Origin: an uncultured Bacilli bacterium
Lineage (GTDB): Bacteria > Bacillota_I > Bacilli_A > RF39 > UBA660
Length of the DNA stretch: 64,000 nt
Assembly: GCA_944358535.1 (NCBI GenBank)
Contig: CALVRH010000001.1
Coordinates: 23,708-87,707 of the forward strand
Direction: 5' to 3'
Under the pieces are notes generated by a model that searched no databases, had not been told where the DNA came from, and saw nothing but the letters and a program-made list of their open reading frames with translations. Positions 1-51,872 of this stretch are shown here, piece after piece (the first letter of the stretch is position 1; each line of letters starts with the position of its first letter). The position numbers were made by a program, and so were the translations under genes.

Positions 1-670
1 TTACTTTATCAAATTTTTCTTCTTGATATTTTTCAGCATTGAAGGCTCTAACTACTCTAATGCCGGTTAGATTTTCTCTAGCTATTCCATTGATTTTATC
101 AATTAATTTTTGAACGAGTTTAAATCTTGGAATAACGATAAGCATAAGGGTTGTAATGACACCCAATAAGATTAATACAGCTATACCAGTGATTGCACTC
201 CACTGCCAACCTTTGTTTAATATTTTGGTAATAGCCCATACCGCTGTTATAGGTGCTTTGACTAGTAGTTGCAATCCCATAGCGATTAACATTTCTATTT
301 GGGTAACATCATTAGTTGTTCTAGTTATTAAACTACTTGTTTGAAATTCTTTGATTTCTTCAGTATCAAGGTTTTGAACTTTATTAAAAATTTGTTTTCT
401 TGTGTTTTTAGAAAATTCTGATGCAATATAAGCGGCAAAATATCCAGCACTAGCGGCGAATATTAAACTGCCTAAAGCGCATAAAACCATATATACGCCA
501 TTTTGAACTATGTCAGACATTTTACTACCTTCTGTTTGAACAAGTACAGTTATTTCAGACATATAATCTGGAATTTTTAGTTCTAGCCATACTTGGCAAA
601 CAATTAAAATTACACAAAATAGTGCATAAAGCCATTCTTTTTTTGTAAGATTTTTTATTAATTTTAGCAT
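1..670 (-). CDS. ABC type-I exporter, N-terminal transmembrane domain (partial; gene continues past window start)
   Basis: Minus-strand frame from ATG at 670-668 stays open to position 1 (absent from ORF track because partial). Translation MLKLIKNLTKKEWLYALFCVILIVCQ... has multiple TM helices and the ...GIRVVRAFNAEKYQEEKF... segment typical of ABC exporter TMDs. Immediately downstream of a MarR regulator. Confidence 0.55.
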   Translation of the reverse strand, partial: MLKLIKNLTKKEWLYALFCVILIVCQVWLELKIPDYMSEITVLVQTEGSKMSDIVQNGVYMVLCALGSLIFAASAGYFAAYIASEFSKNTRKQIFNKVQNLDTEEIKEFQTSSLITRTTNDVTQIEMLIAMGLQLLVKAPITAVWAITKILNKGWQWSAITGIAVLILLGVITTLMLIVIPRFKLVQKLIDKINGIARENLTGIRVVRAFNAEKYQEEKFDKV

Positions 671-674
671 ATGT

Positions 675-1112
675 TCATCCTTTCGTTTTTATATTTTCTT
701 TCATTTTATTAATAATTTTGAAAAAAAGTTCTAAATCTTCTTTTTTGATGCCACTAGTAATAACTTTTTCGGCTTCGTTTAATTTGTCTTTTACAATTTG
801 AAAGTTATTTTTAGCGGTTTCACTAATGATTATTTCTTTTTTTCTAGTATCAATTTGATCTTTAATTCTAAAAATTAGGTCGTTTTTTTCCATTGTTTTT
901 AGAATCTCAGAGAGGGTTGCTCTTCTTAGATTTAGAGCGTTTCCTATGTCTTTTTGATATATTTTTTCATTTTGTTTGGAAATTATAAAGTGCAGGATTT
1001 GCATTTGAGCTGGTGTTGGCATTTTTTGTTTGTCAATATCAGCTATACAAATGTATCTTATAATTTCATGGTTTAAATCTTTTATTAGATAGGTTACTCT
1101 TTTGTTTTCCAT
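675..1112 (-). CDS. MarR-family transcriptional regulator
   Basis: 145 aa with winged-helix core (...QMQILHFIISKQNEKIYQKDIGNALNLRRATLSEILKTMEKNDLIFR...). Positioned directly upstream of the ABC exporter. Confidence 0.8.
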   Translation of the reverse strand: MENKRVTYLIKDLNHEIIRYICIADIDKQKMPTPAQMQILHFIISKQNEKIYQKDIGNALNLRRATLSEILKTMEKNDLIFRIKDQIDTRKKEIIISETAKNNFQIVKDKLNEAEKVITSGIKKEDLELFFKIINKMKENIKTKG

Positions 1113-1236
1113 TATTCACCTTCTTTATAACCTGCTAAAACATTTTAGTATAATTTTAAAATATTGTCAATACCCTAACAAAAATATTTTTAAATCACAT
1201 ATTTTCCCACAATTAAAAGATAAGTGGAACTTATCT

Positions 1237-2094
1237 TTAGTTATTTATATGATGATGTATTTGTGGTGTATTTTTTGTTATTTTGGCAAAAGTATACCCA
1301 TTTTCTTTAGCAAATTTTATAATGGCTGGCAAGGCTTCGACAGTAGTTCTTTTGTCGATTAAATCATGCATTAAGACGATATTTGTTCCATTATGTATTT
1401 TATGCACGACGTTATTATATATGCTTTCTTTTGTCTGCTGACCACTTGCATCATTACTGTCGACATTCCAGTCGAAATAATAGTAATCATTTTCGGTTAA
1501 TTTATTTGTTATTCTAGTTACAATACCTAAATTATATTTTCTAGATATGGTATTTGATGAACCACCTGGTAATCTTACAATACGTGATTTATGGCCAGTT
1601 ATATTATAAATTTGATTTCTTATTTGATTTAAATCATTAAAGTAATTTTCATCTTGGGAATAGATATAACTATAGTTGTGAGTTGATGTATGAAGAGCTA
1701 CTGTATGATTTTCTTCTTGCATTCTTTTAACAAGGCGTGAATATTTATCAATTTGTCTTGAGGTTAAGAAAAAAGTGGCAGGGATATTTTCTTCTTTTAG
1801 AATATTTAATATACTTTCGGTTAGAGCGCTTGGGCCATCATCAAAAGTTAGATAAATGGTTTTAGCTGATACGACTGAAGGGTTTATGTCTTTTGCTTTT
1901 ATTTTATTTGGTTTATAGTAGTTTATTTTTTGACTAAAGGCTACTTTTGGATTTATTTGTTTAAAGGTTTGTTTTGGGTTATTTATTTTGGTTATATAGT
2001 TTAAAATTATTAAAATATTGAATAAGATACATATTATGATTATAATAGGTACTTTATTTTTTAAAATGGTCTGTTTAATGTTTTTATGCAGCAT
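1237..2094 (-). CDS. Polysaccharide deacetylase (NodB/PgdA family), membrane anchored
   Basis: N-terminal TM helix, NodB motifs TFDDGP, HTSTH, RLPGGS, LMHD. About 55% identical over the catalytic domain to the 9068..10477 product. Confidence 0.8.
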   Translation of the reverse strand: MLHKNIKQTILKNKVPIIIIICILFNILIILNYITKINNPKQTFKQINPKVAFSQKINYYKPNKIKAKDINPSVVSAKTIYLTFDDGPSALTESILNILKEENIPATFFLTSRQIDKYSRLVKRMQEENHTVALHTSTHNYSYIYSQDENYFNDLNQIRNQIYNITGHKSRIVRLPGGSSNTISRKYNLGIVTRITNKLTENDYYYFDWNVDSNDASGQQTKESIYNNVVHKIHNGTNIVLMHDLIDKRTTVEALPAIIKFAKENGYTFAKITKNTPQIHHHINN

Positions 2095-2146
2095 ACTACC
2101 TCACCTATTAACATTATACCTTAAAATATAAGGAAAACCAAAGAAA

Positions 2147-3397
2147 TTAGTATTTTCCTTTGGTTTTTTTGCATATATTATTTCTTTCTATTATTAAATT
2201 TAGTATTTCGTTTATTTTTTCTTCAGTTGGATTATCCGCCGTTTTATTTAATTTTTCTAATATTGCTTCTTCACTTTCTTTTGTAAATTCAGATGATATA
2301 GGGTCTGAAAATTTGAGGGCTTCAACTAAGTCTTGATTGTTTATTTTTTTAGCTATGTTTAAAGCTTCTTCAATAAAATTTTGGATGTTATTTATTTTTT
2401 TATCATATTCTTTTAATCTATTTTTGACGAAATATAAAGGTAAGAATATGATAAAATATATGATAGTTGTAACTATAGTTATGATTAAAAGATTATTTAT
2501 ATTTAAGTAAGCATATATGTTTATAGCAAATAGATAAATGATGGATAAAATATATAAGAAAGTTATATATACTGTTTTATCTTGATTTTTCTTTTTATTT
2601 AGAATTAATATAATCAACAAGGTTATAATTAGGGCCACTAATTCTATTATAATGGCAAGATAAAAATTATTATTGATATTTTCGTCTATTATTTGATTTA
2701 TAGTTATAACAGACGAAGGAATATATATTTCGCTTGGCATTTTATCTAAATTCATAGAAATAGTGGTTACAGGAAGATTTTCAATGGTTTCTGGGATTAT
2801 AATTTGTTTTTCACTACCTTTATAACCAGTTACTTCTATTTGATTATTTTTGATGTTATAAGTGAAATTATCGTTACTTTTAAGTTCGTTTAGTTCACTA
2901 TCTGATATGTTTTGATAATTAAAATTGTTTTTTTCGGCATAGTTTTGAACATTTTGATTATTATGTGAGGTTAGTTTGATAGAGCTATTATTGATTGATT
3001 TTATATTTTCATCTATTATTTGATTTATGGTTATAACAGATGAAGGAATATATATTTCACTTGGCGCTTTATCTAAACTCATAGAAATAGTGGTTACAGG
3101 AAGATTTTCAATGGTTTCTGGTATTATTATTTGTTTTTCACTACCTTTATAACCAGTTATTTCTATTTGATTATTTTTGATATTATAAGTAAAATTATCG
3201 TTACTTTTAAGTTCGTTTAGTTCACTATCTGATATATTTTGATAATTAAAATTGTTTTTTTCGGCATAGTTTTGAACATTTTGATTATTATGTGAGGTTA
3301 GTTTAATGGAATTGTTATTAAACGGTTTATTTAGATAGGTTAGAGTTAAGAAAATGGTACTTATTAATATTATAATAACTGGAATGATTTTTTTCAT
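2147..3397 (-). CDS. Membrane protein with two near-identical 118-aa tandem repeats (BspA-like LRR fragments), 4 TM helices and a cytoplasmic coiled C-terminus
   Basis: 416-aa ORF. Repeat unit SIKLTSHNNQNVQNYAEKNNFNYQNISDSELNELKSNDNFTYNIKNNQIE[IV]TGYKGSEKQIIIPETIENLPVTTISM.LDK.PSEIYIPSSVITINQIIDENI occurs twice; the IPSSVITI segment resembles BspA-type LRRs. Start is 1 nt downstream of the SPFH gene stop. Confidence 0.5.
   Translation of the reverse strand: MKKIIPVIIILISTIFLTLTYLNKPFNNNSIKLTSHNNQNVQNYAEKNNFNYQNISDSELNELKSNDNFTYNIKNNQIEITGYKGSEKQIIIPETIENLPVTTISMSLDKAPSEIYIPSSVITINQIIDENIKSINNSSIKLTSHNNQNVQNYAEKNNFNYQNISDSELNELKSNDNFTYNIKNNQIEVTGYKGSEKQIIIPETIENLPVTTISMNLDKMPSEIYIPSSVITINQIIDENINNNFYLAIIIELVALIITLLIILILNKKKNQDKTVYITFLYILSIIYLFAINIYAYLNINNLLIITIVTTIIYFIIFLPLYFVKNRLKEYDKKINNIQNFIEEALNIAKKINNQDLVEALKFSDPISSEFTKESEEAILEKLNKTADNPTEEKINEILNLIIERNNICKKTKGKY
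2609..3316 (-). repeat. Two tandem ~354-bp near-identical direct repeats inside CDS 2147..3397
   Basis: DNA blocks ~2609-2962 and ~2963-3316 are almost identical (e.g. 'gataattaaaattgtttttttcggcatagttttgaacattttgattattatgtgaggttagttt' occurs twice), giving the two 118-aa protein repeats. Confidence 0.8.
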
Positions 3398-12639: not shown

Positions 12640-13401
12640 TTATTTATATAGGCTTATTATGGTATCTAAGTTTATTTGCAGTAGTAATAGTAATGTGGCT
12701 CCAGCTACAAGAAATGGTCCAAATGGAATTATATTATCTTTTTTCTTTAATAAAATAATTAAGGCGATTGGAAGACCAATTAATGAGCCAATAAATATTG
12801 ATAATATTGCGATGGGATAAGTTAGAACCATACCGAAGACAAATAATAATTTAATATCTCCTCCGCCCATTGATTCTTTTTTAAATATAAAGTCTCCAAA
12901 TTTTTTTAGTAGAAACATGGTTAAGAATGCAAAAAAACCATTTAACAGTGAATTGAGTGCTGGCTTTAAGCCATCTATAGCAAGTATTTCTACGAATAAG
13001 ATAATTGCGAAAGTTATTAGTACTTCATCAGAAATTATGAGATAATGATAGTCGCTGACGACTATGATGATCATCATTGAAACAAAGGTTAAGGCAATTA
13101 TTAATTTTGGAGTTAGTCCAAAGGAAATATAACATAGGACAAAAAGGATACCGGTTAGTAGTTCAAAAATTGGATAAAATAAAGATATTTTTTGATGGCA
13201 ATGTTTACATTTTCCTTTTTGAAATATATATGACAATATAGGTATTAATTCTATGTTTGTTAACCTATGATTGCAATTTGTACAATGGCTTGGGGGAAAG
13301 ACGATTGATTCACCTTTTGGAAGTCTATAGCCAACTACATTGTAAAAGGAACCAAAAATAGTTCCTATTATGAATATAAATATACCAATGATTATTTCCA
13401 T
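12640..13401 (-). CDS. Prepilin peptidase (A24 family, PilD/ComC-like)
   Basis: ORF 12640..13452. Start trimmed to ATG at 13401 (MEIIIGIF...) with AGGTGA RBS and no overlap with the upstream gene. N-terminal Cys tetrad (C..C...C..C), multiple TM helices and the conserved ...GGGDIKLL... aspartyl region. Confidence 0.75.
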   Translation of the reverse strand: MEIIIGIFIFIIGTIFGSFYNVVGYRLPKGESIVFPPSHCTNCNHRLTNIELIPILSYIFQKGKCKHCHQKISLFYPIFELLTGILFVLCYISFGLTPKLIIALTFVSMMIIIVVSDYHYLIISDEVLITFAIILFVEILAIDGLKPALNSLLNGFFAFLTMFLLKKFGDFIFKKESMGGGDIKLLFVFGMVLTYPIAILSIFIGSLIGLPIALIILLKKKDNIIPFGPFLVAGATLLLLLQINLDTIISLYK

Positions 13402-13411
13402 ACCATCACCT

Positions 13412-15142
13412 TTATGCTTGAATTTGACCGTACATTGAGAACATTGGTACAACGATTGATAAAACTATGATTCCAACCATAACGGTTAATAAGATGATTA
13501 AGGCTGGTTCCACAAATGTTTTAATACGTGTTACTGAATTTTTATGTAGGTCTTGATAATATAGGGCAATTTTATTCATCATTTCTGGAAGCTGGCCAGT
13601 TCTTTCTCCTGTTACAATCATTTCGTATGCTGGAATTGGAAATGCCCATTGATCTTTAAAGGCAGATGAAATTGATTTACCTTGAGCAATGTTGTTAATG
13701 GCATCATATATTAAGGATCTATATATTTCGTTATTTGTTACTTTATCTAATATTTCCATACTATCTGTTATGAATACATTATGTGATAGTAATGAGGAAA
13801 ATGTTTTTGAAAATGTTGTTACTTCTTTATATATGATTACATCACCAAATACAGGTAAGTGCATTAATGTCCATTGAATGGTTCTTCTAAATGATTTAAC
13901 ATTTTTATATAGATAAATACATAATACTAAGATTACAACAACACTAATACCTATATATATTATATATTTTTGTAAGAAGTTACTTACAGCTAAAACAGCT
14001 AAGGTAATACCTGGTATTTCGGCATTATCCATAGAATTATATATTTCAATAAATTTAGGAACGACATATAGCATTATGAAAGTTCCAACGCCAATAGCAA
14101 TAACAAAAATTATTGTTGGATAAAGCATTGCGGTTACCATGGCTTTTCTGGTGGCTTCAATTTCTGAAAAGTATTCTTCCATGTCATCTAATGTTTCTGG
14201 TAGTTCTCCAGTCATTTCAGCTGTTTTAACCATATTTGTTAAGATTGACGGAAATGCATTTTCTTGTTTTTCGAGCGCTTCACTAAAGCTTTTTCCAATT
14301 GATAAATCATAGTTTAAAGTAGATAAAATTCTTTTATATTTTTTATTTTTAAATTGTTTAGATAAGATATTTATTGCTTCGGCAAGTGGCATTCCGACTT
14401 TTAAGTACGTAGATACTTGAGCTAGGAAAAAGATTAAATCTTTTGTTTTGAATTTATCGTGTGATCCACCTACACTACCATACATGGCATTTATCCATCT
14501 ATTTGTTCTAATACTATAGACGATGTTGCCTTGACTTTTTAAATATGAATGTACTTCCACTAAGGAAAAGGCTGAGAAGTATCCTTTAATTACTTTTCCT
14601 TCAGGATTTCTAATTATATATTCATAAGTTTGTTTTTCTTTTGTTTTTTGGGCTTCTGGTCCTTCATAGTTGATGGTCATTTCTTCAGCATTTTGATATT
14701 TATCTTTGATTTGACCAAGTCCAAGGACATTTTTAATTTTATCTGAAAAACTTAATACTTCTGTTCCGAATTGATCTAATTTTTCACTAGCTGTTTTATC
14801 TTCTAATTTTGAGCTATCTTGAATATAGTCGTTTAATCTTCTTTGGGCTTTCTTTTCTTCTTTTTCTTGTAATTTCTGTCTAGTTTCTTCTTCTTTTTGT
14901 TTTTTTAATGCCTTTTCTTGTTCGTGCTGGGCTAATAAGATATCTGTTTTTTTATAAATATTTTCGGTTTTTTGAGAATTTATGGTTACTTTATCTTTTT
15001 TATCTTTAGCAAATAATTTTACAAGCATTGCCATTAATGCAACTATTCCCAAAAAAACGTATTTTATAAATGAAAAAAATATTTTTATAACGACTAAAAG
15101 ACCTTCAAAAATATATTTAAATGGTGAAAGTACTGTTTTCAT
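13412..15142 (-). CDS. Type II secretion/type IV pilus platform protein (GspF/PilC family) with long N-terminal extension
   Basis: 576 aa. Two T2SSF-type segments (...FLAQVSTYLKVGMPLAEAINIL... and ...PEMMNKIALYYQ...) in the C-terminal 400 aa. An extra ~170 aa N-terminal region has a TM helix and a charged coiled-coil (KKQKEEETRQKLQEKEEKKAQRRL). Confidence 0.75.
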   Translation of the reverse strand: MKTVLSPFKYIFEGLLVVIKIFFSFIKYVFLGIVALMAMLVKLFAKDKKDKVTINSQKTENIYKKTDILLAQHEQEKALKKQKEEETRQKLQEKEEKKAQRRLNDYIQDSSKLEDKTASEKLDQFGTEVLSFSDKIKNVLGLGQIKDKYQNAEEMTINYEGPEAQKTKEKQTYEYIIRNPEGKVIKGYFSAFSLVEVHSYLKSQGNIVYSIRTNRWINAMYGSVGGSHDKFKTKDLIFFLAQVSTYLKVGMPLAEAINILSKQFKNKKYKRILSTLNYDLSIGKSFSEALEKQENAFPSILTNMVKTAEMTGELPETLDDMEEYFSEIEATRKAMVTAMLYPTIIFVIAIGVGTFIMLYVVPKFIEIYNSMDNAEIPGITLAVLAVSNFLQKYIIYIGISVVVILVLCIYLYKNVKSFRRTIQWTLMHLPVFGDVIIYKEVTTFSKTFSSLLSHNVFITDSMEILDKVTNNEIYRSLIYDAINNIAQGKSISSAFKDQWAFPIPAYEMIVTGERTGQLPEMMNKIALYYQDLHKNSVTRIKTFVEPALIILLTVMVGIIVLSIVVPMFSMYGQIQA

Positions 15143-15641: not shown

Positions 15642-16613
15642 TTATATATTGCCTTCAATTCTATATGGGTTATTTATTGTTCCATTTCCAACTAAATTAA
15701 TATGTGAAGATATGTAAACTACTGGCATAACATAATAAGGAGTGTAACTTTTTAGTGGTGTAGATAGAGTGCCAGTTGCGTTTTCAGTAACTATATATGC
15801 GGTACGACCCGAGCTGTCGTTTGGCTCAGTCATGGTCCATGACCCTCCACCATATAAATCTGTTAAAGGTGTGTATAACCAATTTTTTGTTTTGCATATT
15901 TCATAGTTATCTTTATCAAGTTCGATAGTTCCACAATTTATATAATCAGAATTTGCTTTTAAATATTCTGATACTGTTATTAATCCCATATATCCATTCC
16001 ATTGAACTGATTTTTCATCTTTAATTAATTGACCTAGATAGCTAGTACTGTCATTACTTATTAATTTTCCTGCATTCCAAGCATGGGAAATAACTTTTTC
16101 TTTATCACGCGCTAATAAACCATTATACTTGTTTGGCAAAACACTTTTAACTAATGAGGATTCTGCCCAATTTGTTTCATAATCCCCCCATATCGTTCTG
16201 CTATTGGCTTTAGTATTAATATCAGTATCTATCAATTTAATTGTTTCGTCTGATTCAAAAGATAATATTCGCCAATTTTCATCATTAAATCTAATATAAT
16301 TTTTGGGTGATGTTCCTCTATAGATATATTTACCTTCTTCATATTCATCTTTATATAGTCCATCACCTGAAGTAACAATTTCTATTGGATTATTATTAGC
16401 TATAGGAGTATCTGGTTTTGAACATTTTACATATAACTCGTCAATTGCGCTTTGGACATCGTTGCTTTTTAAACCACTATTTGTATTATCATAAGTCACG
16501 TCATTACTTGGAAAATAGGTAGCAGCTGTAACACCGGCTGTTCCAGCGATAAAAATGCCAAGCATAAAAATAAATATTCTGTTTTTAATTATTTTCTTAA
16601 TTTTATGTTTCAT
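15642..16613 (-). CDS. TM-anchored surface protein, 'ATYFPS-DVTYDNT / W-T-S-P ... VRP' paralog family (member A1)
   Basis: 323 aa. N-terminal TM helix, conserved ...AATYFPSNDVTYDNTNSGLKSNDVQSAIDELYVKC..., C-terminal ...NWLYTPLTDLYGGGSWTMTEP...YYVMPVVYISS. About 40% identical to the 50843..51772 product. Confidence 0.5.
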   Translation of the reverse strand: MKHKIKKIIKNRIFIFMLGIFIAGTAGVTAATYFPSNDVTYDNTNSGLKSNDVQSAIDELYVKCSKPDTPIANNNPIEIVTSGDGLYKDEYEEGKYIYRGTSPKNYIRFNDENWRILSFESDETIKLIDTDINTKANSRTIWGDYETNWAESSLVKSVLPNKYNGLLARDKEKVISHAWNAGKLISNDSTSYLGQLIKDEKSVQWNGYMGLITVSEYLKANSDYINCGTIELDKDNYEICKTKNWLYTPLTDLYGGGSWTMTEPNDSSGRTAYIVTENATGTLSTPLKSYTPYYVMPVVYISSHINLVGNGTINNPYRIEGNI

Positions 16614-16725
16614 AATTTACCTCTCTTTTTCGACAATTTCTTTACTATTTTATGGTTACAATTTTATTATATGTCTTTATTGCAGACATGTCAAGCATAA
16701 ATTGTCTTATTTTGAGATAATTTGG

Positions 16726-16974
16726 ATGGTGATAAATATGATAGGAAATGTGCTTAGATATATGAGACGGAAAAATAAATATAAACAAGGTCAAATAAGC
16801 AGAATTGTTGGAGTTGCTAGAAATACTATATCACAGTATGAAACAGAGACAATTCAGCCTACTTTTGATATGATTGAAAAAATTGCTCATAATTGTGGTT
16901 ATAAAATTTACTTTGAGAGTTTAGATGGAAAAGACAGATTTCAAAGTAAAGATATTAGTAGAAAAGAATTGTAA
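16726..16974 (+). CDS. XRE-family helix-turn-helix transcriptional regulator
   Basis: ORF 16555..16974 trimmed to ATG at 16726 because the 5' part overlaps the convergent minus-strand gene. ...LRYMRRKNKYKQGQISRIVGVARNTISQYETETIQPTFDMIEKIAH... is a typical HTH_3 domain. Confidence 0.6.
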   Translation: MVINMIGNVLRYMRRKNKYKQGQISRIVGVARNTISQYETETIQPTFDMIEKIAHNCGYKIYFESLDGKDRFQSKDISRKEL

Positions 16975-31184: not shown

Positions 31185-31335
31185 TAGCACCTCTCTTTCT
31201 GTTTGCCGTTAAAAAAGCTCTGGGTATTATGCCAGAGCTAAAAGACTTTATTAAATGTCTCGGTAGGAAATTAAGCTTATTAGCACCTACTGTCTACGGC
31301 ATAATCAAATTACTAATTCATTATATCATAGCTTT
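31185..31335 (-). promoter_or_regulatory. Probable ribosomal protein L10 leader (autoregulatory 5' UTR of rplJ-rplL)
   Basis: 150-nt untranslated gap between rplA and rplJ with GC-enriched hairpins (e.g. gctctgg-gtattatg-ccagagc). Matches the position of the L10(L12)4-binding leader in Firmicutes. Not verified against a covariance model. Confidence 0.45.
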
Positions 31336-36138: not shown

Positions 36139-36807
36139 TTATTTAAATTTCTTTTTGATTTTTAAAACTTTATTTTGCAAAGCTATATTTTCGCTGTTTA
36201 ATATAAGCGGTAGAACTTGCCCTTCTAGAATATCAAATATGCTTAGTTGAGCAGAATTTTCTTCATATAATTTTACATTTTTTAAAGAGTAAAATAAAGA
36301 ATTGACGGACAAAAGTAAGTTATATTCTTTATCATAATACCATTTAATTGGAATTACTGGGCGAAATTTATCGTTAAAAAGAACATATCTTTTATTATCT
36401 GATTCAAATTCTAGTCCCATTTTCGTTTCACCAATTGGGTAACTTCTGCCTGTAAAAGATAAATTTATGGGGTTATTTAATTGGGTAGTATTAGAACTAT
36501 ACCAGCTTCCAAATTCGATTATGAGAATTCCTTGTTCATTTACATAGTAATTACTATTTTGAATTATATTGGACATATTTTTTGCTTTTATTAATGGCCT
36601 TACTCCACTATTACTATCTACATTTTTAGCCATTATATTTCCAAATATATTAACATTAAGTACTGAACTTTTGTTATCAGAAGTCCAATAATCTGTTAAA
36701 TCATTATTTAAATCTTTGCATTTAATACCTATTTTTTTAATTAATTTAGAGTTTTTTAAATATTCGGTTGATGGTAAAGATATTTTAAAATCTTCTTTGT
36801 TATACAT
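36139..36807 (-). CDS. Hypothetical protein, 'ITLPS-EYL / DYWTS / GVRP' paralog family (member B1)
   Basis: 222 aa. Shares with B2 and B3 the N-terminal E[IV][ST]LPS.EYL..S.LI.KIG, DYWTSD, GVRPLIKA and WYYDKEYNLLLSVNSLF motifs. Confidence 0.45.
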   Translation of the reverse strand: MYNKEDFKISLPSTEYLKNSKLIKKIGIKCKDLNNDLTDYWTSDNKSSVLNVNIFGNIMAKNVDSNSGVRPLIKAKNMSNIIQNSNYYVNEQGILIIEFGSWYSSNTTQLNNPINLSFTGRSYPIGETKMGLEFESDNKRYVLFNDKFRPVIPIKWYYDKEYNLLLSVNSLFYSLKNVKLYEENSAQLSIFDILEGQVLPLILNSENIALQNKVLKIKKKFK

Positions 36808-36827: not shown

Positions 36828-37616
36828 TTATTTTAAAATTTTTATTTTTTGATTAGATATTTCTTGGATTTCATTTAATCTTTTAATATTTTCTTTGAGT
36901 TTTTCATTTTCTTCTAGTAATTCATTTATTTTAGCAATTAAATCATTTGTTGGATATGAATTTTCTTGGTTAATATTTTCTAATAGGCATGAGAGAAATT
37001 CATTATTTAAGCTTTTATATAAACTAGTAGTTTTAAAATCTCCTAAAAATGGATTTTTCTCATCAGATAAAGTTGAATTAAATAAAGTGTGTTCTGATAA
37101 TAATAGGTTATTTTCTTCATCATAATACCAGTTAATGGGCACTACTTTATGAATTTCAGTATTTGTTATAGCAAATACTCCGTTAATAGTGTTTATTTCA
37201 AAACCGATTTCCTTTTGATTTGCTTTAAAGCATTTGTTTTTAAATAAAAATGAAGGTTCTAAATTAGCAATTTTTACAGAATTTGGAGTATACCATTTGC
37301 CAAGTTCTATCATAATAAAACCCTTTTTATATGTTTTAAAAGGACTGGATTTAACAATATCTTCTAGATTAGCAGCTTGGATGATTGGTCTTACACTGTA
37401 TGTTTCACCGGCTTTTGTATGACAAAATTGCCCGTCAGATGACATTCTAAATTGATATGAGCAATCATTATTAATATATGAATAAGAACTAGTCCAATAA
37501 TCCGTTTCTTTATTATCTAAGTTTTTTCCTATATATCCAATTTTTCTTATGAGGGATGATTTTTCTAAATATTCTTTTGATGGTAATGTTATTTCGATAT
37601 CTTCTTTATTTATCAT
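36828..37616 (-). CDS. Hypothetical protein, same paralog family (member B2) with C-terminal coiled coil
   Basis: 262 aa: ...ITLPSKEYLEKSSLIRKIGY..., DYWTSS, SVRPIIQA, NWYYDEENNLLLSEHTLF, ending in heptad-rich LLEENEKLKENIKRLNEIQEISNQKIKILK. Confidence 0.45.
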   Translation of the reverse strand: MINKEDIEITLPSKEYLEKSSLIRKIGYIGKNLDNKETDYWTSSYSYINNDCSYQFRMSSDGQFCHTKAGETYSVRPIIQAANLEDIVKSSPFKTYKKGFIMIELGKWYTPNSVKIANLEPSFLFKNKCFKANQKEIGFEINTINGVFAITNTEIHKVVPINWYYDEENNLLLSEHTLFNSTLSDEKNPFLGDFKTTSLYKSLNNEFLSCLLENINQENSYPTNDLIAKINELLEENEKLKENIKRLNEIQEISNQKIKILK

Positions 37617-37631: not shown

Positions 37632-38162
37632 TTAGTTTATCAACAAATCAGTAATTATATTGGCGGCATCACTACTAAAATCTTTTATTTTATAAAGCGT
37701 GTCTTTGAAAAAATGATTTTTTGTGTTTTTGTTATTTATTTTCATGATAAAGTTATCGTTATCTTTAGTTATTTTGATATCATTTGTATATCTTTGATAT
37801 TTTTGTTTTAGATTTTCTAAATCGTTTTTATTTCCATATATATATAAGGTATCTTTATTTAAGTAAATACTATTTGGAATGAATGATCTATAAAATTGTT
37901 TTATTGTGTCATAGTTAACAATTATATTATCTAGGGATTTTTTTTTGAAATATTTTTTTATTTTTTTTATGTTTATTTTTTTGTTTTTACCACGTTTGGT
38001 GATGCTGAATTTTTTCCCCGTTAAGCTTATATTATTTAACAAATAGCAGGTATTAATATTATTATTTTGTTCAATTGCATCGAGAAATGTATTATCATTT
38101 AGACCAATACCTAGTAGCGATCCTTTTAAATTATTAATTATTTCTAATATTTGTTTATTCAT
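37632..38162 (-). CDS. Hypothetical protein (8-nt overlap, likely translationally coupled, with upstream ThiF-family gene)
   Basis: 176 aa, N/K-rich, no recognisable motif. Start codon overlaps the stop region of the 38155..38832 gene. Confidence 0.35.
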   Translation of the reverse strand: MNKQILEIINNLKGSLLGIGLNDNTFLDAIEQNNNINTCYLLNNISLTGKKFSITKRGKNKKINIKKIKKYFKKKSLDNIIVNYDTIKQFYRSFIPNSIYLNKDTLYIYGNKNDLENLKQKYQRYTNDIKITKDNDNFIMKINNKNTKNHFFKDTLYKIKDFSSDAANIITDLLIN

Positions 38163-38832
38163 GTTTTTCCTCCAGTAGTTTATTTATAACATAACTTGCC
38201 GCTATTAAACCAGCAGTTGCTGGAACAAATGCATTTGAACCAATTTTACCTTTGACTAATGGTTTTTCTTTGGAAAATATAACAGGAATATTTCCTTTAA
38301 TTTTTTCATCTTTAACCATTTTCCTAATTATTTTAGCAATGGGGTCATATTCGGTTTTTCTAATATCGTCTATTTTTAATAATTCGGGATGCATTTTATT
38401 ACCTGTTCCCATTACTGAGACAAAAGGTATTTTCTCGTTTAAACATTTTTTGATAATTAATTTTTTAGTATCAATGGTATCAATTGCATCAATAACAAAG
38501 TCTATTTTTATATTGAAAAGACTATCAATATTTTCTTTATTCAAAAATAGTTTTATATCTTTAATTTTACAATTGGGATTTATATTTTGAGCCATTTTTT
38601 TAGCAACTTCGACTTTTGATTTACCAATAGTTTCTTTATATGCAAGGGCTTGCCTATTTAAATTTGTTATTTCTATTATATCACAATCTATAACGATAAT
38701 ATTTTCAATACCACTTCTAACTAAAGCTTCAAAGGCGTGTCCACCTACTCCACCTAAACCAATTACCATTATGGTTTTATTTTTTAAAGTGTCTATTTTG
38801 TTTCCTATTAAAATTTTTAAACGGTCGAACAT
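38155..38832 (-). CDS. ThiF/MoeB-family E1-like enzyme, TcdA (tRNA threonylcarbamoyladenosine dehydratase)-like
   Basis: 225 aa. Rossmann GLGGVGG nucleotide-binding motif, ...NLNRQ... and overall size/shape of TcdA/YrvM-type stand-alone E1-fold proteins. No C-terminal rhodanese or Cys-rich extension. Confidence 0.55.
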   Translation of the reverse strand: MFDRLKILIGNKIDTLKNKTIMVIGLGGVGGHAFEALVRSGIENIIVIDCDIIEITNLNRQALAYKETIGKSKVEVAKKMAQNINPNCKIKDIKLFLNKENIDSLFNIKIDFVIDAIDTIDTKKLIIKKCLNEKIPFVSVMGTGNKMHPELLKIDDIRKTEYDPIAKIIRKMVKDEKIKGNIPVIFSKEKPLVKGKIGSNAFVPATAGLIAASYVINKLLEEKHE

Positions 38833-38881: not shown

Positions 38882-39898
38882 TTAAGATTGGATTTTGTAA
38901 CCATTTCTTAAAACTTTTGTTTTGGCTTTTTTATCTATTTCACTAAAATGTGCCGATTGAAAATGAGTTAATGTATCGATAGCGCTTTCATCAATAGTAA
39001 TGCAGGCTATACGTCCTGAGTTTTGATATGAAAGTTTCCATTTGTTTTCTGGTAATATTTCATTTAAAGCTTCTGCATAGTTTATTTTTATTTTTTTAGG
39101 GTCTAAATATTCATTGGTACAGAAATTATAAATATGACCATTAATACTTGCAATAAAATTAGCGGTAATAGCATCTTTTTTTATTTCTGTGTTCCAATAT
39201 GCGTCTAAGTCTTTCTTAGCCAATTTTTTGAAATTGTTTATGAATTCTACTTTTGTTATGCTATCTGGTAATTTTAATTCTTCACTATCAATCATGCTTT
39301 CTAGTATTTTAGCTGATGTGTTTATTCCTTCATAAGTAATATCAATTAAGTTTTGGCTTTTTTGATAGCCATTTGAAACTTGGATATTGATATTTTCTAA
39401 AATTGCTAAGAAAATATTAGTACCGTTTATGTCTTTTAAGTTTTTTTGATTTAAGTAATTTATTTTTTTAAATTTATGGGTTATATAACCATTTTTTAAA
39501 ATCTGTTCTTCTGCATTTTCTTCAATTTTTCCTTTATAAAATTCTTCGAAGTTTTCAACTAAATAAGATTTATAATCATCAATATCAACGGTTATTATAT
39601 CATGGCTTACAATATAAACTAGTCTCCAAATTGAATTTGGCATAATGTCAGAAAAGGCTCTAGCAAATAAAATTTCAGAATTATCATTTATAAATTTATG
39701 GGTATTAAAGTTATATATGCGCCCATCAATAGCACTAAGACAGCTAAGAGTAGTTTGATTATTTTCTTTTAAAAATGCTAAAAATAAATTATCGCCATTT
39801 AAATTTTCTAAATCTTTTGCATTTAAACGATCAATGTTATCATATAAGTAGTCAGCGTCACCAATATTAAAATATTCATTTTTCATAATAAATTTCAT
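38882..39898 (-). CDS. Hypothetical protein with internal duplication
   Basis: ORF to 39937. Likely start MKFIMKNEYF... Two related halves (...DLENLNGDNLFLAFLKENN...IDGRIYNFNTHKFI... and ...NLKDINGTNIFLAILENIN...INGHIYNFCTNEYL...). No known domain recognised. Confidence 0.35.
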   Translation of the reverse strand: MKFIMKNEYFNIGDADYLYDNIDRLNAKDLENLNGDNLFLAFLKENNQTTLSCLSAIDGRIYNFNTHKFINDNSEILFARAFSDIMPNSIWRLVYIVSHDIITVDIDDYKSYLVENFEEFYKGKIEENAEEQILKNGYITHKFKKINYLNQKNLKDINGTNIFLAILENINIQVSNGYQKSQNLIDITYEGINTSAKILESMIDSEELKLPDSITKVEFINNFKKLAKKDLDAYWNTEIKKDAITANFIASINGHIYNFCTNEYLDPKKIKINYAEALNEILPENKWKLSYQNSGRIACITIDESAIDTLTHFQSAHFSEIDKKAKTKVLRNGYKIQS

Positions 39899-40018
39899 TC
39901 CTTTTACTTTGTTCAAGGCACACATAGTCATGAACAATATAATTATTTTTCATACTATTTTCCTTTACAAGTTAATGATAACATGTTTATAGAAAAAAAT
40001 CTAGAATAATTTCTAGAT

Positions 40019-40927
40019 TTACAAATGTAATGTTTTTTGATGACCGTGATTTTGTATATCTAGAACAATTTTATCTATCTCATCATTTAATTTTTTATTT
40101 TGTAATCTTAATGCTTCATTTTCTTTAGTCAGTTCTTTTAATTTTTCAAGTAATTCTTTTTTTCTTTGGATATCAGGTTTTAAACTCTCATTTTCTGATA
40201 TTATTGTTTGCATATAATTTTCATCCTCTGAAATGTTTATTTTTGAAATTTCTTTATCAGTGATATCTACATTAATGAGAAGATCTTTTATAAATTCCTT
40301 ATTCAAAAAACGATATAACTGAGAATTTTTGAAATCATTATCATAATCGTTATTATATTCAGAATCTTTGACGTTTATTGGTGATTCAAATAAGACGCCT
40401 ACAGATATTAACATATTATTTTCCCTATCAACATAAAACTTAGCTGGTTTTAATGGATAATAACAACCTCGCAATTTAATAATCTCTTGATTGTTATAAA
40501 TATATGTTTGACAGTTATACCACTGAAATATATTTGACTTATCAATCATAGATATAGCAGGAATATGATATCTATAGTACTGGGGTTTAAAAGTGTGAGA
40601 ATAATCAACATTTAATTTTTTGCTTAAATCAGGATATGTTCCAAGTTCTATAATTTGAATGCCATTTTTAAATTTTCTTGGACAATTTTTAATTAATTCG
40701 TATAGACTATCTGTTTTTAAAACAGGGCGTACACCACAGTTATAATGTATTTGATGATAGTGTATATACCCAAAAATATCAACCACTCCGGCAAAATCTT
40801 TTAAAATTGTATCACTTGTCCAATAAATTTTTTTACATCCTGGTCCGATTTTTTGTAAGACTTTAGATTTTTCTTCTATTTCTTCTCTTGATAATAAAGT
40901 TACTTCTATATTAGGTTTTTCACTCAT
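40019..40927 (-). CDS. Hypothetical protein, same paralog family (member B3) with C-terminal coiled coil
   Basis: 302 aa: ...IEVTLLSREEIEEKSKVLQKIGP..., KIYWTSD, GVRPVLKTD, C-terminal ...KKELLEKLKELTKENEALRLQNKKLNDEIDKIV. Confidence 0.45.
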   Translation of the reverse strand: MSEKPNIEVTLLSREEIEEKSKVLQKIGPGCKKIYWTSDTILKDFAGVVDIFGYIHYHQIHYNCGVRPVLKTDSLYELIKNCPRKFKNGIQIIELGTYPDLSKKLNVDYSHTFKPQYYRYHIPAISMIDKSNIFQWYNCQTYIYNNQEIIKLRGCYYPLKPAKFYVDRENNMLISVGVLFESPINVKDSEYNNDYDNDFKNSQLYRFLNKEFIKDLLINVDITDKEISKINISEDENYMQTIISENESLKPDIQRKKELLEKLKELTKENEALRLQNKKLNDEIDKIVLDIQNHGHQKTLHL

Positions 40928-42335: not shown

Positions 42336-43037
42336 CTAACTAATAAATTCAATCAAATATGGTCCAAGTATTAAAACTAAAATTAATGGAACAATAAATA
42401 GCACTGAGATGATACTAACTTTATTTGGAATTTTGTTTATTTGTTCTTTAGTGGTTAGAACTTCTTTATCCCTTAAAAAATCTACTTCATTATAAAGGGT
42501 ATCTAAAATGCTATTTCCAAATCTATTTGTTTGAATTATATTTAATATTATGTTATTAATAATATCTGATGATATACGGTTTTTTAAATCACTAAGTGCT
42601 TCAATTAATGATTTTCCATAATTCATTTCTTCTAGAGCCTCTTTAAATTCTTTAGAAATTTCTGAATCGACATTTTCACAAGTAACTTTTAAAGCGTTTT
42701 CTAGGTTACGCCCGGATTCTAAAGTTAGTGTTAGAATTTCAAAGAAGTATAGAGCTTGATGTTCTAAACGTCTATTCCGTATTTTTAGTTTTTTAGTTAT
42801 ATTTATGTAATAGAACAGATAGTAACAAGCAATGGCAACAAATGGGGCATAAATATAACCCATGTCTGTGATTAGTATTATTAAGATAAACGATATAACT
42901 GTGATTGTTAATCTTGAAAGGCAGAAGGTTGTGACAGTGTATTTTGTATCGCTACCTAGACATTTTAATTTGGTTTCAATTTCGTTTAGTTCCTTTTTGC
43001 TATATATTTTTTCAATGAATTTGGTTTGCTCTACCAT
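42336..43037 (-). CDS. Tad/Flp pilus assembly membrane protein, TadC-like (T2SSF domain)
   Basis: 233 aa. Two N-terminal TM helices, a central helical T2SSF-like segment, C-terminal TM. 1-nt overlap with the upstream TadB-like gene. Confidence 0.55.
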   Translation of the reverse strand: MVEQTKFIEKIYSKKELNEIETKLKCLGSDTKYTVTTFCLSRLTITVISFILIILITDMGYIYAPFVAIACYYLFYYINITKKLKIRNRRLEHQALYFFEILTLTLESGRNLENALKVTCENVDSEISKEFKEALEEMNYGKSLIEALSDLKNRISSDIINNIILNIIQTNRFGNSILDTLYNEVDFLRDKEVLTTKEQINKIPNKVSIISVLFIVPLILVLILGPYLIEFIS

Positions 43038-44530
43038 TAAATCACCACCTTCATTACTTTACGAACTACTACCACAAAAATTATATAGTAAATTATCATA
43101 AATATCAAGAGGATACGTCCAATATCGGTAGTGATAAATGGTAAAAAGTAACCTGGATTTATTAAACTAATGACTAAGACGAAGAAAAATGGAATTCCAA
43201 GTAATACATAAACGATGATTCGACTACCACTAGTTAAACTTTTTAATTCTAATCTAAGTTTACGTTTATCGAAAAGATTTCTTTCGATTGATGTAAATAC
43301 TTTGATGATATCACCACCGGTTTTATTTAAAATTGTTAAAGAGGCGGTTAAGTAAGTTGCTTCTTCTAATTTTACTCTTTCGGAAAATCGTTTGAATACT
43401 TTGCCAATATCGAGTCCATATAATAATTCTAAATTCATTCTTTTGAATTCTGCGCCTATTGTTCCACCTACTTCAGTAGAGACTATTTCGATGGCTTGGG
43501 TAATACTTCTTCCGGATTTAAAGGAGTTATTCATGATGGTGATAGCTGCAATAAAATCGCTTTCTAGATTAATTCTAAAGACTTTATACTTAGCAAATAA
43601 GTATATATCTAGAACAAAAAATCCTAAAACAAAGATGCTTAATGTTTCTGCACTACTTAATAATTTAAATTGAAAGGCTTTAATAATGATGGCTAAAAGT
43701 GTTAAAAGACAGGCGACGATTATTTTTCCACTTAAAATGTCAAATCCAGTTTTATGAGTTTTACTGACAACAGTATATTTTTCTAATTTTTTAGCATATT
43801 TTGTGGCAACTTCTGATTTTTTTAGTTTATTATTAAACATTTCGAGATATTTTCTATATAGCCTTTTTAATTTTTCTGAAGTGCTTAAGGTATCATTTTT
43901 TAATGGTTTTATGACATATGGTTCTAATCTTTCTTCTAGTTTTACTACTTTAAATAATTTGATCACTCTAATAATTAATAAGAAGATGATAAGAAAACAA
44001 ATTATTTGAATAAAGTAAATTGAGGTACTATGAGGTTCAATATATATATTGGCATTTTTGGTAGAAGTATTGCCGGCTTCATCTTGGACTGTACAGGTAT
44101 ATGTATAACTTCCTGTTTTGTTTAATGATAATTCATTAATATTGCTTTGAATTTTATTGGTTAAATTTCCATCATAGTTATCAGTGGCTGTACATGATAT
44201 TAGATTTTTATCGTTTGTTGGGGTGGTTTTAATTTCATCTGATGAAATGTTTATTTGTGGGGCTTCTTTATCTATAATATATTGACCACTATTTATAATA
44301 TCCGCTGCTTCATTTATTAAGTTTACTTGAACAGCTATTTTATAGATTCCTGTTTCGGTTAATTGAATAGTGGCATTAGTGGCTTCAGAAATTTCAGTTT
44401 GACTAATTAAAATATCATTTTTGTAAATTTGATAAGTATAAGAGATGACGTTTTGAGATGGTGAAAAAACGACAGTTATATCATGATTTACGGGTTTTTC
44501 TATGCTTTCAATATCGAATTTTCCATTCAT
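43037..44530 (-). CDS. TadB-like pilus assembly membrane protein with N-terminal Ig-like extracellular domains
   Basis: 497 aa. N-terminal ~170 aa has Ig-like repeats (..TATDNYDGNLTNKI.. resembling the DUF5011 repeats of 9068..10477), then TM. T2SSF-type segment ...GRSITQAIEIVSTEVGGTIGAEFKRMNLELLYGLDIGKVFKRFSERV..., two C-terminal TM helices. Confidence 0.55.
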   Translation of the reverse strand: MNGKFDIESIEKPVNHDITVVFSPSQNVISYTYQIYKNDILISQTEISEATNATIQLTETGIYKIAVQVNLINEAADIINSGQYIIDKEAPQINISSDEIKTTPTNDKNLISCTATDNYDGNLTNKIQSNINELSLNKTGSYTYTCTVQDEAGNTSTKNANIYIEPHSTSIYFIQIICFLIIFLLIIRVIKLFKVVKLEERLEPYVIKPLKNDTLSTSEKLKRLYRKYLEMFNNKLKKSEVATKYAKKLEKYTVVSKTHKTGFDILSGKIIVACLLTLLAIIIKAFQFKLLSSAETLSIFVLGFFVLDIYLFAKYKVFRINLESDFIAAITIMNNSFKSGRSITQAIEIVSTEVGGTIGAEFKRMNLELLYGLDIGKVFKRFSERVKLEEATYLTASLTILNKTGGDIIKVFTSIERNLFDKRKLRLELKSLTSGSRIIVYVLLGIPFFFVLVISLINPGYFLPFITTDIGRILLIFMIIYYIIFVVVVRKVMKVVI

Positions 44531-44545
44531 CTTAAGTCATCTCCT

Positions 44546-45874
44546 TTACTCTCCAAAGATATCTTTTAAATCATCAATACCTTTGGCTTTTATTTTTTGA
44601 TATACTTTAGGGATGTATTTGTGGAGTAAGAATTCTCCATCAACATCACCATTTGGTAAAACACCGGTTTGTCTAAATTTGAAAATTTCTTTTTGTTTTA
44701 TTTCTCCGTTTTCCATACCAATTATTTCATTAATACTACTAACTCTTCTACGTCCATCAGATAGTCTTTTGACTTGAACGACGATTTGGATGGCACTTTC
44801 AATGTATTCTCTAATAGCTGTTACTGGTATTTCGACACCGTTCATTAGGACCATGGTTTCCAATCTATTTAAAGCATCAGTAGGACCATTGGCATGCATG
44901 GTTGTCATACTTCCTTCGTGTCCTGTATTCATGGCTTGAAGCATGTCAAAAGCTTCTTTTCCCCTAACTTCTCCAACGATTATTCTATCTGGCCTCATTC
45001 TAAGTGAGTTAATGACTAAGTCCCTAATTGTAATGGCACCTTCTCCTTCATAATTGGTGGTTCTAGTTTCTAATGATATAACATGTTCTTGTTTTAATTT
45101 TAATTCAGCTGCGTCTTCAATAGTGATAATACGGTCATTTGGATCACAGAATGATGATAAAACGTTTAATAATGTTGTTTTACCGGCACCTGTTCCACCT
45201 ACTACTAGGATGTTTAATTTAGCATGAACACAAGCTTCTAAGAATCTTGCCATATAAGGGGTTAGGGTTCCAGTTCTTAGTAAGTCTTCAATGTTGGCAA
45301 GTTCACTTTTGAATTTTCTTATTGTAACTACTGGACCATTTAAGGAAAGTGGTGGCAAGATAGCATTTAGTCTTGATCCATCTTCTAGTCTTGCATCGAC
45401 CATTGGATGAGCGATGTCGATTGTTTTTCCGATTGGTTGGATTAATCTTTGAACTACTCTGACTATATGATCATCGTTAATAAAACTGACACTATCGTCT
45501 TTAATAACTTTACCGTCTAATTCTATGTATATTTCGTTTGGAGAATTAACCATGATTTCTGTTAGTTCTTTATCTTTTAAAAGTTCGGTTAGGGGTCCAT
45601 ATCCGTTTACTTCATTATCGATTAAGTTATATATATAACTACGTTCTTCGTTGGTTAAATCATAACCTTCGATGGATTTATCGATTTCGTCTTTGATAAA
45701 GTCTTTCATGTCTTCGTTTGTTTTATTTTTATTATCAATGATATTCTGAATAATTTTATTTCTGAGTTCGTCTAGTAAAATTTTATTTGGAAATTCATCA
45801 TAATCATCGATTTCTTTTACAATTTGAGACTCATTTGTTTGGGCGAATTCATCAACAAAGCGTTTAGTTTCCAT
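44546..45874 (-). CDS. CpaF/TadA-family pilus assembly ATPase (VirB11-like)
   Basis: 442 aa. Walker A VVGGTGAGKTTLLNVL, Asp box, ...RPDRIIVGEVRG... Walker B/His box region typical of CpaF. Confidence 0.85.
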   Translation of the reverse strand: METKRFVDEFAQTNESQIVKEIDDYDEFPNKILLDELRNKIIQNIIDNKNKTNEDMKDFIKDEIDKSIEGYDLTNEERSYIYNLIDNEVNGYGPLTELLKDKELTEIMVNSPNEIYIELDGKVIKDDSVSFINDDHIVRVVQRLIQPIGKTIDIAHPMVDARLEDGSRLNAILPPLSLNGPVVTIRKFKSELANIEDLLRTGTLTPYMARFLEACVHAKLNILVVGGTGAGKTTLLNVLSSFCDPNDRIITIEDAAELKLKQEHVISLETRTTNYEGEGAITIRDLVINSLRMRPDRIIVGEVRGKEAFDMLQAMNTGHEGSMTTMHANGPTDALNRLETMVLMNGVEIPVTAIREYIESAIQIVVQVKRLSDGRRRVSSINEIIGMENGEIKQKEIFKFRQTGVLPNGDVDGEFLLHKYIPKVYQKIKAKGIDDLKDIFGE

Positions 45875-45886
45875 GGTTTTCCTCCT

Positions 45887-50134: not shown

Positions 50135-50459
50135 TTTTTTGGTTATATTATAACATTTCGTTTTTTCATTTTCAAGAATCTTACAAGTGACAGCATGAAA
50201 AAATCTCTTGTTTGAACAAAATGCCAAAATAAATTTTGTTTGTAATTATCTCACGGTGGGCTTTTCGCTTTTCATAAGAATCTTAGAATTTTCCATAGAC
50301 TATCACTATTGCAACAACTATATCACGAATAGTTATATTTACAAATAGTTTTAATTAACATTTTCGTGCTATTTGAAAAATACACTTTATATATGAACAA
50401 AATTGTTAAAAACAATATCAAAAAATACTGAAATTTTTAATGTTCAGCATTTTTTAAAA

Positions 50460-50840: not shown

Positions 50841-50842
50841 AC

Positions 50843-51824: not shown

Positions 51825-51872
51825 AACAAGTAATATTTTTGTTAGATAACTTGTTTTTTTGAACAAAAATTC

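Follow-up and report, generated by a model that had tools for sequence, protein, structure and literature searches.

A stretch of 64,000 nucleotides (nt) from an uncultured Bacilli bacterium (positions 23,708 to 87,707 of contig CALVRH010000001.1, assembly GCA_944358535.1; hereafter, the window) carries five genes whose products, designated here A to E, are placed by sequence comparison in two anciently diverged branches of the DUF6273 domain family (Pfam PF19789) and not in one paralogue family. The first branch contains A (323 amino acids, aa; 15642..16613), predicted to be exported and to follow the canonical segment order of the domain, and its paralogue B (309 aa; 50843..51772), which has the same architecture. 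The second branch contains D (262 aa; 36828..37616), a predicted cytoplasmic protein in which a rearranged DUF6273 domain appears to precede a coiled coil, its tandem paralogue C (222 aa; 36139..36807), located 20 nt downstream and carrying the same domain, and E (302 aa; 40019..40927), a third and more divergent copy with a long predicted coiled-coil tail. All five open reading frames (ORFs) are present on the minus strand, as are the protein segments whose coordinates are given below, and their limits are those of an earlier model-made reading of the same letters (hereafter, the original prediction); the ORF of B can be extended to a TTG codon at 51829, and its ATG start at 51772 is backed by homologues. 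The explanation that best accounts for the whole set, and that we regard as reasonably probable, is that A and B are exported binding modules and that C, D and E are cytoplasmic coiled-coil proteins built on a rearranged DUF6273 domain.

The split into two groups, A/B and C/D/E, is apparent in all-against-all BLASTP comparisons. Aligned from end to end, A and B show 38% identity (E = 6e-55), and the pairs among C, D and E share 31–36% identity (E = 1e-37 to 3e-18), with 36% between C and D (E = 1e-37) and 31% between E and either of them; across the groups, BLASTP found nothing better than E = 1.6, and it detected no sixth member among the six-frame ORFs of the window. The original prediction had described a single five-member paralogue family, whose expansion would point to a lineage-specific module acting at the surface or in interactions. 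This explanation, in which the family would have expanded recently, is already contradicted by the data and is very unlikely, although all five genes are found within the 64 kb of the window, C and D are neighbours in tandem, and a W-T-S ... V-R/M-P segment with a profile alignment value of P ~1e-4 is found in all of them. The lack of BLASTP similarity between the groups is accompanied by an opposite order of segments relative to the Pfam model and by different predicted locations, A/B being exported and C/D/E cytoplasmic. Moreover, proteins of the A/B type are abundant and not lineage-specific, with 785 database homologues found with A in many metagenomes, and the rarer C/D/E type, for which a word-indexed search with D finds 5 relatives, constitutes a deep family of its own, with 309 clusters at 50% identity in an exhaustive profile search, 61 of them with E < 1e-10.

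Most members of the C/D/E family are proteins of 200–320 aa with the same layout, which is best described in D. Segment N (residues 1–84; 37365..37616), which reads IEITLPSKEYL ... YWTSS ... SVRPII, is equivalent to the last third of the DUF6273 model and is aligned by hhalign to residues 206–318 of A/B. It is followed by segment M (residues 85–154; 37155..37364), a beta-rich insert (IELGKWY ...) that has no counterpart in the Pfam model and contains strands from residue 94 to 150 in the AlphaFold2 (AF2) prediction, and by segment C (residues 155–215; 36972..37154), which reads VVPINWYYDEENNLLLS ... LYKSLNNEFL and corresponds to the N-terminal third of the model. In the family as a whole, these segments follow the patterns IEVTLLS-EE ... 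KIG ... YWT-S ... GVRPV (N), VEYG-YP with a beta-rich continuation (M), and P-I-x-W-Y-V-D-x-E-N-x-L-I-S ... L-F ... L-Y-x-x-L-N-x-x-F (C), and matches of a hidden Markov model (HMM) of segment M are confined to the C/D/E family. The C-terminal part of D (residues 223–261; 36834..36950) is a coiled-coil helix, predicted by AF2 as one single helix and with sub-threshold matches to leucine-zipper Pfam families. The proposal that C, D and E are soluble proteins with coiled-coil tails is largely borne out, since none of them carries a signal peptide or hydrophobic segment (maximum Kyte-Doolittle value of 0.7–1.25 over 19-aa windows) and a coiled coil is also probable in E, whose tail aligns with those of D and its relatives and has Pfam coiled-coil matches below threshold at residues 251–288; however, C keeps just 16 residues after the domain and its coiled coil is reduced.

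The two groups are connected by a single detectable element. The core motif "W-T-S(P) ... VRP" attributed to all five proteins is found in B (WWTLSP ... VVRPAI), C (YWTSDN ... GVRPLI), D (YWTSSY ... SVRPII) and E (YWTSDT ... GVRPVL), but A reads SWTMTEP ... YVMPVV, that is, VMP instead of VRP; the spacing between W and V is 28–36 residues. A profile-profile comparison revealed similarity between the two groups: hhalign aligned the C/D/E alignment with a 35-sequence A/B alignment over 87 columns (P = 1.4e-4), which comprise three separate conserved blocks, namely IEITLPSKEYL with GKVALITVSEY, YWTS with WT(L/M)(S/T), and VRP with V(R/M)P. When a 53-sequence profile was used, the P value between groups was 1.7e-5 to 3e-5. 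Consistently, the HMM of segment N matches 30 of 122 A/B-family proteins (for instance P0010 at residues 248–291, in the WWTLS..VRP region), and those of segments M and C match none of the 122. Judging from these alignments, the WTS...VRP segment is the sole detectable link between the groups and reflects genuine remote homology, because both of them touch the same Pfam family, DUF6273.

This affiliation had been guessed in the original prediction, and the guess was correct. B exceeds the gathering threshold of the Pfam model (23.5 bits) by far, with 50.6 bits, and most homologues of A carry PF19789; as for the C/D/E family, DUF6273 is the sole Pfam family matched recurrently: when the segments were scanned in isolation, it was matched by 8 of the 53 N segments and likewise by 8 of the 53 M+C segments. 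Four full-length relatives of C/D/E are above the threshold, namely P0131 (28.7 bits), P0140 (26.6 bits), P0151 (26.3 bits) and P0005 (24.4 bits). The positions of these matches are reversed with respect to the model. Segment C matches its start (residues 187–221 of E to model positions 20–55, 167–209 of P0131 to 3–50, 166–214 of P0140 to 3–56, and 415–460 of P0158 to 5–55), and segment N matches its end (23–79 of P0005 to 117–168, 29–79 of P0126 to 123–167, and 30–73 of P0131 to 126–168). Thus, the reversed order occurs inside one and the same protein, P0131, whose M+C fragment still matches the start of the model when isolated (fragment residues 89–131 to model positions 3–50). A match collinear with the model is found in B and is reversed in the C/D/E family, whose members, compared with the PF19789 proteins of Firmicutes and phages, match the model in pieces, lack some 60 central positions (approximately 57–116) and carry the additional beta-rich insert, segment M, as well as the coiled coil.

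These matches also bear on the idea that the shared motif is due to convergence or chance and that the fold of C, D and E is new and has no relation to DUF6273. The absence of Pfam matches for C and D, the lack of a significant Foldseek match for the D model and the limited cross-group support (P ~1e-4 to 1e-5) are all compatible with it. However, it would leave unexplained that DUF6273 is repeatedly and independently the only Pfam family matched by both sets of segments, that four relatives surpass the Pfam cut-off, and that 87 columns with three conserved blocks can be aligned, so that we deem it highly improbable.

The layout of C/D/E fits a circular permutant, since its N-terminal part matches the end of the model and its C-terminal part matches the start. 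The order of segments was surveyed with separate N, M and C HMMs in 278 proteins, comprising 273 from database searches and the five from the window. The order N-M-C was found in 113 of them, N-M-C-N-M-C in 8, M-C-N-M-C in 1 and M-C-N-M-C-N-M-C in 1, and a single-unit M-C-N protein in none of the 278. Such a pattern is what a circular permutation that proceeds through duplication and truncation classically leaves behind, and C, D and E are therefore probably permuted, as far as segment order can tell. The permutation would most likely have arisen in a tandem array, because relatives carry N-M-C-N-M-C arrays in which a Pfam domain spans the C-to-N junction: in the two-unit protein P0151, the match at residues 214–375 (model positions 5–170) bridges segment C of the first unit and segment N of the second. 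In the resulting proteins, the end of the domain (LLS-E ... YWTS ... VRP) would come first, followed by the beta-rich insert, the start of the domain (W-x-V-D ... LLS ... LN..F helix) and the coiled coil, with positions ~57–116 of the model lost and segment M gained.

Several results weigh against this rearranged arrangement or fail to favour it. C and D have no Pfam match and E remains under the cut-off with 19.1 bits (residues 187–221), just 8 of the 53 segments of each kind reach E < 0.01, and the A/B and C/D/E profiles are significantly similar over segment N only, with P = 0.11 for segment C against A/B and P = 0.37 for the middle part in hhalign. Re-ordering did not help in a decisive manner either. 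When the N segment of ten C/D/E-family proteins was moved to the C-terminus, the Pfam scores were not raised, a test that cannot discriminate because HMMER sums local matches whatever their order, and the local hhalign scores of a re-ordered C+N profile against the A/B domain were identical. After greedy realignment, the re-ordered profile was collinear over 131–158 columns with every motif placed correctly and no gain in significance, and global hhalign was mixed, with a higher score for C+N (25.9) than for N+C (19.4), yet a higher score for the full native order (30.4) than for the full permuted one (22.3). As to structure, Foldseek, which aligns in chain order, found no significant match of the D model in the PDB or BFVD, and we infer that segments N and C of a single chain pack together to form one domain. 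Finally, the C/D/E genes have no conserved operon partner outside one lineage of uncultured Bacilli.

The D model itself is confident, with a predicted local distance difference test (pLDDT) value of 93.8 and a predicted template modelling score (pTM) of 0.82. Along the chain, it contains a strand-helix-helix unit (LLS-E), a strand (YWTS), a hairpin, a strand (VRP) and the beta-rich segment M; next come a long strand (W-Y-Y-D), another strand (LLLS) and a helix (LN..F), and the coiled coil closes the chain. This predicted order is consistent with a rearranged domain. The sole hint from the Foldseek searches was a partial match to a viral DUF6273 model (61 columns, 2.9 A, probability 0.90, E = 0.52), and segment M had only insignificant matches to Tudor-like folds. 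The same model is relevant to another arrangement, in which each C/D/E chain would hold two incomplete half-domains that are completed between subunits, giving rise to domain-swapped dimers or filaments that the coiled coil would hold together. The bridging Pfam domain of P0151 and the presence of probable oligomerizing coiled coils in D and E agree with such swapping. However, confident prediction throughout the D monomer is unusual for exposed half-domains, and C retains a full N-M-C unit with almost no coiled coil, which makes domain swapping a rather unlikely arrangement. In the rearranged single-chain domain that we favour, the coiled coil would most likely dimerize or trimerize, displaying rearranged lectin-like heads in the cytoplasm.

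With regard to their genomic setting, C, D and E lie among genes of one strand separated by short gaps, in the order MurC, E, a 351-aa ORF (38882..39937), a ThiF/TcdA-like gene (38155..38832), a 176-aa ORF (37632..38162), D, C, LemA and DUF2207. The 351-aa protein, which contains an internal duplication, and the 176-aa protein are both encoded on the minus strand and have no match in Pfam, NCBIfam, PHROGs or PADLOC. Three related contigs (L003, L005 and L013) keep MurC, a 330–350-aa protein, ThiF and the 176-aa protein together with two tandem N-M-C genes, placed after the 176-aa gene in L003 and L005 and before ThiF in L013. None of the three has a copy at the position of E, between MurC and the 330–350-aa gene. 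Since the related contigs hold two tandem copies without E, the tandem pair formed by C and D is old in this lineage, to which E adds a further copy of greater divergence; of the five genes of the window, the C-D pair only, and perhaps also E, look like products of local duplication.

Distant members of the C/D/E family reside in unrelated neighbourhoods, and in some of them the module is embedded in larger proteins. It is fused to an AAA_5/sigma54-type AAA+ ATPase in P0140, follows an RHS core and membrane segments in P0158, and occurs as two N-M-C units followed by six DUF4116 repeats in P0151, and the WTS...VRP segment alone recurs six times in P0184 (3528 aa). In contig L009, a reverse transcriptase (RVT_1) and two DNA methyltransferases (317..3372) are found 2.6–5.7 kb from the N-M-C gene of P0133, with an IS91-type transposase in between. 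A tblastn search with E in a phage collection retrieved nothing at E < 1e-3. Scans with NCBIfam, PHROGs and PADLOC gave no informative match apart from that of B to phrog_9958, a family of unknown function (E = 7.5e-7), so that a role in defence systems is unsupported. The persistent linkage to the ThiF-like gene and the two uncharacterized genes is the only lead on the role of C, D and E. Tentatively, they may represent an undescribed family, invisible to Pfam, in which a circularly permuted C-type-lectin-like domain with a beta-rich insert, mounted on a coiled coil, serves as an intracellular recognition module rather than as a surface lectin.

A and B are ordinary additions to a domain family that is already known but has no assigned function. 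The Pfam match of B (E = 2.7e-13) is collinear with the model, with residues 140–290 (50903..51355) aligned to model positions 27–171, and contains WWTLSP, a hypervariable stretch at residues 251–280 and VVRPAI. A has no Pfam DUF6273 match at E <= 1, and its membership in the family follows indirectly from its 38% identity to B, from the presence of PF19789 on most of its top 120 homologues and from a fold match to PDB entry 9qa6. Compared with the PF19789 proteins, B is thus a bona fide member and A its paralogue. In this type of protein, the conserved blocks W-R-I-L, LN..Y, (K)V-A-L-x-T-V-S-E-Y, WWTLSP and VRP occur in the order of the model. The AF2 model of A (pLDDT 84) contains a globular domain of the DUF6273 type at residues 85–320 (15654..16361), which includes SWTMTEP ... 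YVMPVVYI, has pLDDT values mostly of 88–97 and is also supported by alignment. The best PDB match of the A model, the aforementioned 9qa6, was obtained by Foldseek with E = 4.4e-4, probability 1.0, 291 columns and a TM-score of 0.41. When PDB sequences were searched with the profiles of the two families and with the N-terminal motif of A/B, nothing significant emerged.

The N-terminal string ATYFPS.DVTYDNT.SGL.SN.VQ.AIDELY reported for A and B is indeed present in both, in each case after a hydrophobic segment of 19 residues. In A, this segment comprises residues 13–31 (16521..16577), ends in V-T-A-A, has a Kyte-Doolittle value of 2.15 and is partly predicted as a helix (residues 12–24). The original prediction regarded it as a transmembrane (TM) anchor; the hydrophobic segment stands, but it may instead be a cleaved Sec type I signal peptide, in which case the proteins would be secreted. 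Across 35 homologues of A/B, an n-region with an average net charge of +4.7 is followed by an uncharged run of 18.5 residues on average, and V-x-A is kept directly before A/V-TYFPS; on account of this basic n-region, the length of the run and the V-x-A position, the segment resembles a Gram-positive type I signal peptide, and these features are compatible with a cleaved peptide as well as with an uncleaved anchor. In addition, a linker containing Cys and Pro lies between the N-terminal motif and the DUF6273 domain. Three cysteines are invariant in the A/B family (C64, C227 and C240 in A numbering), which would suit an extracytoplasmic location. A and B would consist of a Sec signal or anchor, a motif of 25–30 aa, the Cys/Pro linker and a canonical DUF6273 domain.

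Variability along the A/B family is distributed very unevenly. Column entropy is lowest in the N-terminal motif (0.4–0.95 bits), which in A spans residues 30–62 (16428..16526) with the sequence ATYFPSNDVTYDNTNSGLKSNDVQSAIDELY, and peaks at 2.5–3.3 bits at residues 251–280 of B, between WWTLSP and VRP. In phage DUF6273 proteins, the variable regions of diversity-generating retroelements (DGRs) map at the C-terminus of the domain, a published position with which the hot-spot of B coincides (PMC11792537; bioRxiv 10.1101/2024.10.15.618418). By analogy, A and B would be surface-exposed binding modules, adhesin- or receptor-like, whose specificity would be determined by the loop or hairpin between WWTLSP and VRP (residues 251–280) acting as binding surface, in the manner of the variable region with which phage DUF6273 receptor-binding proteins contact their ligands.

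The similarity to phage proteins extends to the N-terminal motif, for which there is neither a Pfam model nor a match in the PDB sequences. A tblastn search with this motif in 50,697 phage genomes gave seven weak matches (E ~0.1). The annotations of the proteins concerned are tail fibre, virion structural, DUF6273-containing or hypothetical, and a record without annotation is also among them. One of the seven is gp68 of Faecalibacterium phage FP_Taranis, a tail-associated protein. Among the known DUF6273 targets of phage DGRs, which include the tentaclins, gp68 and targets in phages Roos, Pioen and Lelie, gp68 was compared directly. Its gene (L008, 4941..6581), annotated as encoding a DUF6273 protein and DGR target, directly follows those for the baseplate and tail fibre and precedes a reverse transcriptase. 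The N-terminus of gp68 reads AADISYDNSKSGISAANVQEAIDAL, against SKDVTYDNTASGLQSNNVQGAIDEL in B; B matches its residues 19–43 by BLASTP (E = 2e-5), the A/B family profile matches gp68 by hhalign (P = 5e-6), and its C-terminal WWLRSP...VVP aligns with WWTLSP...VRP of B (E = 0.011). Thus, A/B and the phage DGR targets have in common the motif x-D-V/I-S/T-Y-D-N-x-x-S-G-x-x-x-x-N/D-V-Q-x-A-I-D-x-L at the N-terminus and, at the C-terminus, a DUF6273 domain whose variability is greatest just before the final VRP strand (PMC10743442; PMC11792537). Since the motif sits at the attachment end of the phage protein, it would probably serve for attachment or oligomerization in A and B.

In view of this shared architecture and of the hypervariable stretch at the variable-region position, A and B could be taken for prophage-derived or DGR-diversified receptor-binding proteins that still operate in a phage or DGR context. 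However, they are chromosomal and located behind a signal or anchor sequence, which is absent from virion proteins, and, unlike phage DGR targets, they have no Ig-like spacer domains and no close phage homologue (a tblastn search with B in the 50,697 phage records gave nothing at E < 1e-3). Their examined neighbours are housekeeping or unrelated genes, encoding an XRE-type regulator, a YqfQ-like protein, a T2SSF protein with a prepilin peptidase, ABC-F, MutS and a Lon/PDZ-like protein, and no reverse transcriptase is present among the neighbours that were scanned or read, a subset of the ORFs of the window. Moreover, blastn (word size 7) found only chance matches of at most 24 nt to the last ~260 nt of A/B, and the DGR hypothesis was rejected for the window for want of a template-like repeat. 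With non-phage neighbours and a motif of 25 aa as the only part shared, A and B do not qualify as phage tail fibres or receptor-binding proteins, and a persisting phage or DGR context is extremely improbable. The two-part architecture of A/B is that of a phage receptor-binding protein, yet in cellular proteins.

A cellular counterpart is the immunoglobulin A (IgA) peptidase of Thomasclavelia ramosa, the Firmicute surface protein of entry 9qa6, in which an N-terminal DUF6273 domain directly follows the signal sequence, as in A/B (PMC12402451). In contrast to this enzyme, A and B stand alone without peptidase or sortase motif, and the structural agreement is modest according to the TM-score. A point against a binding role is that the DUF6273 domain of the IgA peptidase has no significant effect on catalysis (PMC12402451). 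The suggestion that the proteins are lectin-like holds at the level of the superfamily, since the DUF6273 domain is described as C-type-lectin-like in published structure comparisons. Nevertheless, a lectin function would be a fold analogy only: compared with C-type lectin folds, such as Mtd of phage BPP-1, snake-venom lectins, intimin D3 and the FGE-like subgroup, the matches of the A model to snake C-type lectins, langerin, intimin and PvdO are weak and non-significant (E 0.9–9.5).

The surroundings of A and B include some further elements. Just downstream of A, a T2SSF protein and an A24 prepilin peptidase are identified by Pfam without an adjacent ATPase (12640..15142, minus strand), and since these genes adjoin A, the possibility that A is a type IV pilin or pseudopilin was considered. 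This candidate was discarded: A starts with MKHKIKKIIKNRIFIFMLGIFIAGTAGVTAATYFPS and has no G-F-T-L-x-E class III signal, and its hydrophobic stretch precedes the conserved V-x-A instead of following a cleavage site. A second set, Tad-like and composed of ParA, T2SSE and two T2SSF genes, is located upstream of MurC (42336..46627, minus strand), as deduced from its synteny with L003 and L013, where the gene lengths are identical; neither set has an identified pilin gene in the window. A regulator of the XRE family with a helix-turn-helix domain (HTH_3, E = 1e-10; 16726..16974, plus strand) is divergent from A and could regulate it. Because the mechanical ORF of this gene (16555..16974) overlaps the start of A, its true start is probably internal. 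Between B and mutS there is a gap of ~615 nt (50228..50842) with no ORF of at least 50 aa, Rfam family or tRNA, and the TTG start annotated for mutS is probably too far upstream, so that the gap would be even larger.

The window as a whole, with a G+C content of 29%, consists of chromosomal core genes. MurC and MutS were read from their translations, and genes for ribosomal proteins, NusG and RNA polymerase were assigned by synteny with annotated contigs; an ordinary leader RNA of ribosomal protein L10 (RF00557, 70 bits) is found at 31202..31317 (minus strand), upstream of the L10/L12 genes. A scan of genome contigs revealed one close locus only, in the metagenome-assembled genome of an uncultured Bacilli bacterium.

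Although these observations change no major concept, they concern a domain that is increasingly recognized as one of the main scaffolds with which gut phages bind receptors, that is a frequent DGR target and that also occurs on bacterial surface enzymes. Abundant cellular proteins of the A/B type reuse the N-terminal motif and the variable-loop domain of phage proteins, an indication that gut Firmicutes and their phages exchange binding modules. On the other side of the family, the cytoplasmic rearranged version escapes Pfam, and about 300 clusters are labelled "hypothetical" that a dedicated model would annotate. If the proposed arrangement is true, C, D and E would exemplify a natural circular permutation through a tandem array in a C-type-lectin-like fold and their type would constitute a new intracellular recognition module. 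Thus, the practical gains are a better annotation of the family and a testable structural prediction.

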